DNA of 11,792 nt from Candidatus Micrarchaeota archaeon (GTDB lineage: Archaea > Micrarchaeota > Micrarchaeia > Anstonellales > Bilamarchaeaceae): positions 1 through 11,792 of the forward strand of contig JBFMCO010000070.1 in assembly GCA_040754495.1 (NCBI GenBank), in the 5' to 3' direction. Shown here one piece after another: positions 9,181 through 11,323 of the stretch. The number at the start of each line of letters is the position of its first letter. The stretch's first letter is position 1. The position numbers and the translations under genes are program-made. The notes under the pieces were generated by a model. It had not been told where the DNA came from. It was given only the letters and a program-made list of their open reading frames with translations, and made no database searches.

Positions 9181-9759
9181 CTACAATCTCATCTGGTCCT
9201 TCTTCTCGGCCCTGCTCCTTGCGTCATCAACTATGGCCAGCCAGGAATCGCCGATTTTCATGAAGTAGTTGCCGAACGTCTTCGAGAGCGATATGCGCAT
9301 CGGGCGGAATTTCCTCTTGCTCTCGACTGCCACCACCGTATCCCGCTCGACCTTTATCATCCCCACGCGCTTGAGCCTCGGAAGGACGCGGTTGTAGAAC
9401 GTCGCCTTCGAGATGCAGCCGCTCCGTACGAACTCAGCGGTCTCCTCGCCGGACACCTGCGTCTTTTCGGCGAGCAGCCTCAGGAAGCCGAGCGCAATCT
9501 CGTAATACTTCGGCTGGTATTTTTTCGAGAAGATGAAATTGGCGACCTCATCGACGTTCCAGGTGTTCCTCGTGATGGTCTCGTTCCTGTCCTGGAACGA
9601 GCGCAGCTCCTCGCTGTCGTGCCTGGGGAGATAGATGGATTCGGACGACGGCACGCCACGGGAGGAAATCTGACGGCCCGCGGCATCCGGTTTCCGGTCT
9701 CCGGCATCGTTGTCGTCGGGTTTAGGGTTCTGGGTTTCGGCTTCGTCCTGGTCGCTCAT
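9181..9759 (-). CDS. Hypothetical protein with probable winged-helix domain (192 aa; start ATG 9759)
   Basis: Disordered acidic N-terminus, then ALGFLRLLAEK...EETAEFVRSGCISKATFYNRVLPRLKRVGMIKVER (wHTH-like). TATA-like CTTATATT 22-29 nt upstream supports ATG 9759 over 9873. Confidence 0.8.
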   Translation of the reverse strand: MSDQDEAETQNPKPDDNDAGDRKPDAAGRQISSRGVPSSESIYLPRHDSEELRSFQDRNETITRNTWNVDEVANFIFSKKYQPKYYEIALGFLRLLAEKTQVSGEETAEFVRSGCISKATFYNRVLPRLKRVGMIKVERDTVVAVESKRKFRPMRISLSKTFGNYFMKIGDSWLAIVDDARSRAEKKDQMRL

Positions 9760-9780
9760 GCGAAGATTGGGAATAGAAAA

Positions 9781-9788
9781 AATATAAG
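9781..9788 (-). promoter_or_regulatory. Putative TATA box for the wHTH gene (leaderless)
   Basis: Minus-strand CTTATATT 22-29 nt upstream of ATG 9759. Confidence 0.55.
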
Positions 9789-9818
9789 GTTTACCGTGAC
9801 GGTGATATTCGTTCCGGA

Positions 9819-10199
9819 TTACATCTTCGTTGGCTGGAATATGCCTATGACGTTCCCCTCGCAGTCCATGCACAGCTGGTAAAAGCCCATGTCCCCGACG
9901 GTCATCTTCTCCCCGACAGCCTTGCCGCCGGCCGCCTTCAGCTTCTTGAGCGTATCCTCGATGGAATCCACGCCCATCACGATTACCGGCCCCTCGCCCT
10001 TCTTCATCCTCTTCTTCAGGCCGCCGTTTATCGCCCCGGGCCTCTTGGGCATGAACTTGTCGTCCACCTCGACGGTGTAAGCCATCGTATAATCCATCTC
10101 CGGGACGTCGTCCAGCTTCCAGCCGAACACGTCCTTATAGAACTTCTTAGCCCTCTTCACATCGTCTGCCGGTATCTCGAAATGCACTACCGAGTCCAT
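9819..10199 (-). CDS. VOC (glyoxalase/bleomycin-resistance) family protein (126 aa; start ATG 10199)
   Basis: VVHFEIPADDVKRAKKFYKDVFGW, INGGL, VDSIEDTLKKL...GG and DCEGNVIGIFQ motifs; SD-like GGTGG upstream. Confidence 0.92.
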   Translation of the reverse strand: MDSVVHFEIPADDVKRAKKFYKDVFGWKLDDVPEMDYTMAYTVEVDDKFMPKRPGAINGGLKKRMKKGEGPVIVMGVDSIEDTLKKLKAAGGKAVGEKMTVGDMGFYQLCMDCEGNVIGIFQPTKM

Positions 10200-10256
10200 A
10201 AGACCACCGGCAGTTCTAGGGGCAGGCAGGAATAAATAGGTGCGCCTAACTCGCAC

Positions 10257-10568
10257 TTACTCCCCGAAAATAGAGCCGAAGCCGCTCTCGGCCTCCTCCT
10301 CTTCCTTGACGACCTTCTCGGCAACGCGCTTCTCGACGTCCGGCGGCGCGATCTTCACGATGGCCTTGAGCTTCTCGTCGGCTTTTTTTATGAAGTCGTC
10401 CGAAGCCTTCATGTACAAGTAGGTCTTGCCATTGTCCTCGCCGAGGGCCGCCCCGTCCTTGAGCTTGTAGCCCACGCGCGCGAAGCTGTCGTCGGCGTAC
10501 GGGTCGGCCTCGAGGAGCTTCGTCAGCTCCGCTTTCTTCTGGTTCTCGCACTCATAAACGCGCTGCAT
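10257..10568 (-). CDS. Hypothetical protein (103 aa) with acidic C-terminal tail ending GFGSIFGE
   Basis: Clean ORF with host codon usage, TGATG overlap with the upstream membrane-protein stop, and a mixed alpha/beta pattern. Confidence 0.88.
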   Translation of the reverse strand: MQRVYECENQKKAELTKLLEADPYADDSFARVGYKLKDGAALGEDNGKTYLYMKASDDFIKKADEKLKAIVKIAPPDVEKRVAEKVVKEEEEAESGFGSIFGE

Positions 10569-11323
10569 CAGTCTTCTCCCTCATCAGCCTTTATTTTCAG
10601 CGAATCCTCCATCATGACTATCATCGAGGCATAGAGCACCGGATACGCGAAGAAGATGGTCACGAACTGCACGAAGGGGATGAAGTTGAGGATCCAGACG
10701 ACTGCAAAGAGCGAATACATTGTTATGAAGAAGATATGCCTCTTCCTGAGGAAGTCGAAGGCGTGCTTCATGGAGCTGAAGAAGTCGGTCCCAAGCGCAC
10801 CGGCCGAGATGAACGCGGGCGTGAAGAGCAGGTGCACCACGAACGTGACGAAAAGCAGGTAGAGGTAGAGAAGGACGTCCATGAACTCCACGTCGCTGAC
10901 GAAGTAGACGAACACCGCGATGAACGGGCCGGCAAGAAGCAGCCACAACAGGTCCCGGAGGAGCATCACGCCGAACATCTCCGGCGCCTTGTCCAGGGCG
11001 TACGAATAGAATTTCGTCAGGCTCATCTTCTCCTTCCAGGCTGCCGAGCGGTAGGCGCGCGCGAGGGCCGCATTCAGCCCGCCGCTGAAGAATACGAACA
11101 GGAGGCCTATCACGCCGAAGATGGCCATGGTCGGCAGGGCCGAGGGGTCCAGGTCCTTCCCGAACATGGACAGCGATATGAAATACGCGAGAACGACGCC
11201 CAGGGCCGCGAAGAAGAACGCTATGAGGAGGATGATATACATCAGCGAGCCCCACACGAAAAGGAAAGGATTCTTCGAATACGCGTTGAATGCCTTGGTG
11301 ATGCTCTCAATCAAATCTTCCAC
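10568..11323 (-). CDS. Multi-pass membrane protein of unknown function (251 aa, about 5-6 TM segments; GTG start)
   Basis: Several long Phe/Leu/Ile/Val-rich stretches, e.g. FLFVWGSLMYIILLIAFFFAALGVVLAYF, MAIFGVIGLLFVFF, LLWLLLAGPFIAVFVYFV, VLLYLYLLFVTFVVHLLF and IFFITMYSLFAVVWIL. Confidence 0.88.
   Translation of the reverse strand: MEDLIESITKAFNAYSKNPFLFVWGSLMYIILLIAFFFAALGVVLAYFISLSMFGKDLDPSALPTMAIFGVIGLLFVFFSGGLNAALARAYRSAAWKEKMSLTKFYSYALDKAPEMFGVMLLRDLLWLLLAGPFIAVFVYFVSDVEFMDVLLYLYLLFVTFVVHLLFTPAFISAGALGTDFFSSMKHAFDFLRKRHIFFITMYSLFAVVWILNFIPFVQFVTIFFAYPVLYASMIVMMEDSLKIKADEGED

Follow-up and report, generated by a model that had tools for sequence, protein, structure and literature searches.

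The C-terminal peptide of the ribosomal stalk is the common handle by which archaeal and eukaryotic ribosomes gather their GTPases and ABCE1. In archaea it is carried by aP1 (L12e/P1; Pfam PF00428), in which an N-terminal all-helical dimerisation domain that binds the aP0 spine is joined by a flexible Ala/Pro-rich hinge to an acidic run and a terminal GLxxLFG-type motif. In the complex of the Pyrococcus horikoshii aP1 peptide with aEF1A-GDP (PDB 3WY9; PMC4267659), the L103S, L106S and F107S substitutions abolish aEF1A binding and L100S weakens it, the same three residues serve aEF2, and the carboxylate of the terminal Gly is contacted by aEF1A K324 and S423. In studied archaea aP0 carries a seventh copy of the tail, and the peptide works through multivalent pooling on the stalk (PMC7768734). 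Eukaryotic P1/P2 tails end …MGFGLFD. As far as we could find, the peptide has been described only on stalk proteins, and our literature searches for a stalk-tail mimic in archaea or Micrarchaeota found nothing relevant.

We examined a window of 11,792 nucleotides, positions 1 to 11,792 of contig JBFMCO010000070.1 (C70 below) from a Candidatus Micrarchaeota assembly (GCA_040754495.1), in which a first-pass annotation had pointed out a small protein with a C-terminus resembling the stalk tail on a mixed alpha/beta body unlike that of aP1. That observation is confirmed. The gene at 10257-10568 on the minus strand comprises 103 codons plus TAA, starts with ATG, and encodes a protein ending KEEEEAESGFGSIFGE. 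The tail (residues 88-103: an acidic run plus GFGSIFG(E)) lies at 10260-10307(-) and its GFGSIFG core, G96-G102, at 10263-10283. To test whether such an ending could arise by chance, we scanned all six frames of the 1.63-Mb genome. Of 13,803 stop-to-stop frames of 60 aa or more, only two end in G[FLIMV]xx[ILMV]F[GD] plus 0-2 residues: this one and the true stalk protein aP1, which ends EEQAAEGLASLFG, suggesting that a chance occurrence is unlikely. The protein is nevertheless not the stalk protein itself. A Pfam scan and a genome search gave no PF00428 hit, the sequence has no Ala/Pro-rich hinge, in contrast to the genome's own aP1, and the gene lies outside the L11-L1-L10-L12 cluster: the aP0-aP1 pair is on another contig (C46), while this gene is on C70 between a membrane protein gene and a glyoxalase-like gene.

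Distribution and conservation of the tail

The protein has no Pfam or NCBIfam match but is far from an orphan, and its named homologues come from Candidatus Micrarchaeota. A profile of 25 relatives found a single copy in 194 of 201 genomes sampled across the phylum, and in 149 of 152 high-quality ones, and a profile of 88 diverse members found the family in 83 of 101 Aenigmatarchaeota genomes. The Micrarchaeota tallies for this family, for aEF1B and for PF00428 include one or two unpublished genomes (G029, G198) on which no conclusion depends, and G029 was left out of the aEF1A alignment. An exhaustive phmmer search of 1.84 billion representative sequences returned 118 clusters, almost all of 90-160 aa and almost all ending …EEExAxxGFGSIFG. 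Names attached to a distant subgroup of 96-98 aa are Aenigmatarchaeota. A scan of GTDB genomes with a degenerate DNA pattern for the tail recovered 74 loci, one of them from the cultured Ca. Micrarchaeum sp. A_DKE (NZ_CP060530.1). Records titled Methanothrix sp., Candidatus Acidiferrales bacterium and Candidatus Marsarchaeota (genomes G304-G307; loci L085, L128, L147 and L152) are 0.7-0.8-Mb genomes carrying a Micrarchaeum-type locus of rps8e, the family gene and pyrB, and are probably mislabelled or mis-binned Micrarchaeota. A range beyond the two DPANN phyla therefore rests only on ESM Atlas labels that mention Thermoplasmatota. Architectural variants also occur: two members (P0222 and P0223) carry a Zn-ribbon-like CxxC…CxC insertion in the alpha1-beta2 loop and one (P0200) has a tandem duplication of the body, and both forms keep the same tail.

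We next asked which part of the protein is most conserved, a point set beforehand as a test of the stalk-tail reading. In the alignment of 88 diverse members G98 and F101 are invariant, and G96 (98%), A93 (90%) and G102 (85%) are strongly conserved. Measured by relative entropy, GFGSIFG is the most conserved 7-residue window at 3.17 bits per column. The next six windows all overlap it, and the best window in the body, SFARVGY, which ranks second, scores 2.27. Residues 89-102 average 2.49 bits per column against 1.59 for residues 1-75. This test, proposed in the first-pass annotation, is passed. In the Aenigmatarchaeota subgroup the body has diverged to about 30% identity and lost the DPY loop, yet the tail is unchanged. 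Of the 88 members, 57 end exactly at …FG, as aP1 does, and some family members end …GFSLFE or …GVALFD, closer still to the eukaryotic tails, with which the family shares the G-F-G core and the hydrophobic-Phe end, although it is archaeal only and does not sit on a stalk protein.

The match to the stalk tail extends over 13 positions. Counting from the chain end, the family, the P. horikoshii aP1 and the aP1 of this genome (ending KKEEQAAEGLASLFG) share E at -13, -12 and -11, A at -10, G at -7, a hydrophobic residue at -6 and -3, F at -2 and G at -1. In this register F97, I100, F101, G102 and E90 correspond to P. horikoshii L103, L106, F107, G108 and E96, so that the residues shown by mutagenesis to bind aEF1A and aEF2 (PMC4267659) have counterparts here. 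The genome's own aEF1A keeps the domain-1 contact residues K125, F129 and L166 unchanged and has R132 as K, but the residues that hold the terminal carboxylate, K324 and S423, are T and D, a difference that applies equally to its dealings with its own aP1. In addition, the protein of the window and some relatives carry one or two extra residues after the Gly whose free carboxylate is contacted in the P. horikoshii complex. The family tail is consistently G-F-G-S-I-F-G, whereas the aP1 tails of the same genomes are G-L-A-S-L-F-G. The two are therefore distinct conserved variants, which leaves room for a different affinity or a different preferred partner. Co-folding of the protein with the genome's aEF1A and GDP, run without controls, gave a median score of 0.27 against a mark of 0.32 and is not used as evidence either way.

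Predicted fold of the body

An AlphaFold2 model based on the 88-row alignment (pLDDT 86.5, pTM 0.72) predicts a ferredoxin-like beta-alpha-beta-beta-alpha-beta body (residues 1-75; 10344-10568(-)) with the conserved loop LEADPY...SFARxGY, in the order beta1 2-8, alpha1 9-21, beta2 34-38, beta3 48-54, alpha2 57-67 and beta4 71-73, followed by one long helix carrying the tail (residues 76-101 by DSSP; 10266-10343(-)). The model thus confirms that the body is mixed alpha/beta and differs from the aP1 dimerisation domain, and the tail is predicted to be helical, as that of aP1 is when bound. Confidence is 89 or more for the body and at residues 81-90 is still 89, but falls to 67 (91-100) and 58 (101-103), which fits a protruding, flexible end, although exposure of the tail is inferred from these values alone. 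Like aP1, the protein is small and acidic. The pI of the body is 6.2 (family median 5.4), which argues against a classic rRNA-binding ribosomal protein.

Foldseek and two VIA-align searches returned only generic ferredoxin-like folds: PII, PstA, ACT, KH, xRRM, EF-G/LepA domains and SBDS domain III. Foldseek E-values were 0.014 or worse, Z was at most 7.7, below the noise mark of 8, and the list was flat. The best fold-level matches were small regulators of the PII, PstA and ACT type (Foldseek probability 0.9-0.99, TM 0.43-0.47, Z 5-6), to which there is no sequence relation, and no T-loop or ligand motifs were identified. These matches give the fold class only. A profile search of PDB sequences gave only chance-level TetR and PII hits, and no solved structure was found.

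Because the exchange domain of aEF1B/eEF1B-alpha (PF00736) shares the size (about 85-90 aa), the topology and the acidic character of the body, and because its partner aEF1A is also a plausible partner here, we considered whether the protein replaces aEF1B. It does not: a canonical 85-aa aEF1B lies elsewhere in this genome (contig C56, 57071-57325), and aEF1B was found in 95 of 101 genomes of the phylum. As to a more distant relationship, there was no Pfam hit, profile-profile alignment with hhalign gave a probability of only 26% over 73 columns, and aEF1B did not appear among the listed structure matches, which does not exclude it. aEF1B has no stalk tail.

Genomic context and the stalk in these genomes

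No neighbour is conserved across the whole family. In the window, an archaeal-type PEP carboxylase gene lies next door. Immediately upstream, a 251-aa multi-pass membrane protein is encoded at 10568-11323(-), its TGA overlapping the ATG of the family gene by one base (TGATG). Downstream, at 9181-9873(-) with a probable true start about 9759, lies a gene for a winged-helix-like protein ending WLAIVDDARSR, an assignment made from the sequence only. Neither protein has a Pfam hit. The order membrane protein, family gene, winged-helix gene recurs in the window's own clade (sampled loci L002-L007, L081, L103, L121, L129 and L135), and the membrane protein gene is a conserved partner only there. In the window a glyoxalase/bleomycin-resistance-fold gene (9819-10199(-), assigned by Pfam) is inserted between the last two, an insertion that the close relatives L002-L007 lack. 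A terminator-like weak hairpin plus T-rich run directly follows the stop codon (10231-10256(-)), but its fold of -9 kcal/mol is not significant (z -1.18).

In the large Micrarchaeaceae-type clade, whose members carry an insertion after DPY, the gene directly follows rps8e on the same strand (gaps of -1 to about 20 nt) and precedes pyrB. This held in all 9 loci sampled from families f10/f11 and in 31 further loci found by the tail pattern. In one genome the gene lies divergently beside the uL3-uL4-uL23-uL2 operon. In Aenigmatarchaeota it sits between a radical SAM gene and an unnamed coiled-coil gene, which gave no functional lead. Assemblies of RNA libraries from four runs (at least three studies) contain the locus of Ca. 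Micrarchaeum A_DKE, and in two of them single contigs span rps8e, the family gene and pyrB, which shows presence only and not level, strand or transcript ends. In two independent assemblies the contigs break at the rps8e/family-gene junction (locus L125, 1194-1223) with strongly different depths on the two sides (627 against 15, and about 50-100 against 17). This may mean that rps8e is far more abundant than the downstream gene, but contig depth cannot prove it. A search of the supplementary tables of PMC8975820 for expression of the A_DKE homologue, covering the relevant table only in part, returned no hits.

We also examined aP0 (uL10). In this genome it is 284 aa (L001, contig C46, 1854-2708) and ends …MALEGLKK, with its stop about 20 nt before the aP1 ORF, leaving no room for a hinge and tail. 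Across 61 Micrarchaeota genomes PF00428 matched once in 56, four more carried only an extra sub-threshold hit and one had no match, and the aP0 proteins read were 277-301 aa without the motif. The same was seen in five family-bearing genomes reached through pattern-scan loci, three titled Aenigmatarchaeota and two unclassified archaea, one of which looks Micrarchaeota-like by its family protein. Over the loci read in both phyla (L046-L075, L155-L174) aP0 is 252-301 aa, with a few up to 385 aa that have low-complexity acidic ends, and lacks the hinge and the acidic/GLxxLFG tail that aP0 of studied archaea shares with aP1. The stalk would then carry at most six tails, not seven. To test whether the family supplies the missing arm, we examined the 10 Aenigmatarchaeota genomes without a family hit. 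In the seven where aP0 could be read, all seven equally lacked the motif, so that a complementary presence/absence pattern is not supported.

Possible roles of the stalk-tail protein

We propose that the protein belongs to an unannotated, vertically kept archaeal family in which a small ferredoxin-like body carries, on a long helix, a copy of the stalk's factor-binding peptide. The shared and best-supported step, that the end-peptide is a working stalk-type docking helix for translational GTPases and/or ABCE1, is in our view somewhat more likely than not. The peptide would dock as a helix into the same hydrophobic grooves of aEF1A, aEF2, aIF5B and possibly ABCE1 that the aP1 tail uses, and the near-neutral to acidic body would supply a second, probably protein-protein, interface. 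On this reading, which we hold at about even odds, the protein is a free, off-stalk holder or adaptor of translation factors that works constitutively alongside the ribosome, and is neither a stalk subunit nor an rRNA-binding ribosomal protein. The motif, its register and conservation, the predicted fold class, the distribution and the rps8e linkage in one clade come directly from our analyses, whereas binding to the factors, exposure of the tail and the direction of any effect are inferred. The first-pass interpretation, that a non-ribosomal stalk mimic might recruit, sequester or relocate translation factors as an undescribed regulator, is partly supported: the non-stalk carrier of the tail is real, but a regulatory role remains hypothetical, and near-universal single-copy conservation and placement after rps8e in a large clade fit a constitutive translation helper at least as well as a regulator.

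What is new is the carrier, a conserved non-stalk protein, and the short docking peptide itself is already known. More speculatively, and with less than even likelihood, the family may be an unrecognised general co-factor of archaeal translation, binding aEF1A, aEF2, aIF5B or ABCE1 off the ribosome and, through its conserved body, holding, handing over or withholding them. It would then be either a trans-acting extension of the stalk's factor pool or its built-in antagonist, kept as a core gene by tiny-genome archaea whose aP0 has lost its own tail. A conserved single-copy protein whose most constrained part is this handle would mean that factor traffic is also managed off the stalk. The family also offers a small, tractable protein for which assays (gel shift, hybrid-ribosome GTPase and poly(Phe)) already exist, as does a cultured carrier, Ca. 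Micrarchaeum A_DKE.

Among the alternatives, the best surviving, although unlikely, is that the body docks on the large subunit or the stalk base and that the protein is a lineage-specific ribosome-associated factor-catching arm making up for the lost aP0 tail. The tail-less aP0 of both phyla and the co-location with rps8e would suit a ribosomal component. However, the body is unlike rRNA-binding ribosomal proteins in its pI, aP0 is equally tail-less where no family hit was found, the fold gives no specific ribosomal match, and no fusion to any ribosomal protein was found among longer proteins, although the last is weak evidence. Less likely again is an inhibitory decoy, the sequestering option of the first-pass annotation, in which the free tail would compete with the stalk for aEF1A, aEF2 and aIF5B and so damp or park translation as a hibernation-like regulator. 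The motif evidence is the same, and a monovalent soluble copy of a peptide that works through multivalent pooling would by itself act as a competitor, but a near-universal single-copy gene in very small genomes, placed with a ribosomal protein gene, looks like a housekeeping rather than a conditional arrangement, and no stress-type neighbours or regulators are conserved next to it. Equally doubtful is a convergent likeness serving self-association, the co-encoded membrane protein or some other hydrophobic-groove protein with no direct role in translation, since, despite the consistent GFGxIFG variant, the translational coupling to a membrane protein gene in the window's clade and a fold class (PII/ACT-like) typical of small oligomeric regulators, the match to aP1 covers 13 positions including the Ala at -10 and the chain end, the membrane-protein neighbour is confined to one clade, and the tail is not known to fit another archaeal C-terminal motif (PIP box, HbYX or FtsZ C-terminal peptide).

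A further protein may also combine a non-stalk body with a stalk-like end: in one genome (G239; locus L169, 1495-2028(-)) a HIT-like protein starting MAEDCLFCKI ends in an acidic run plus DLDFDF and gives a weak PF00428 hit (21.6 bits).
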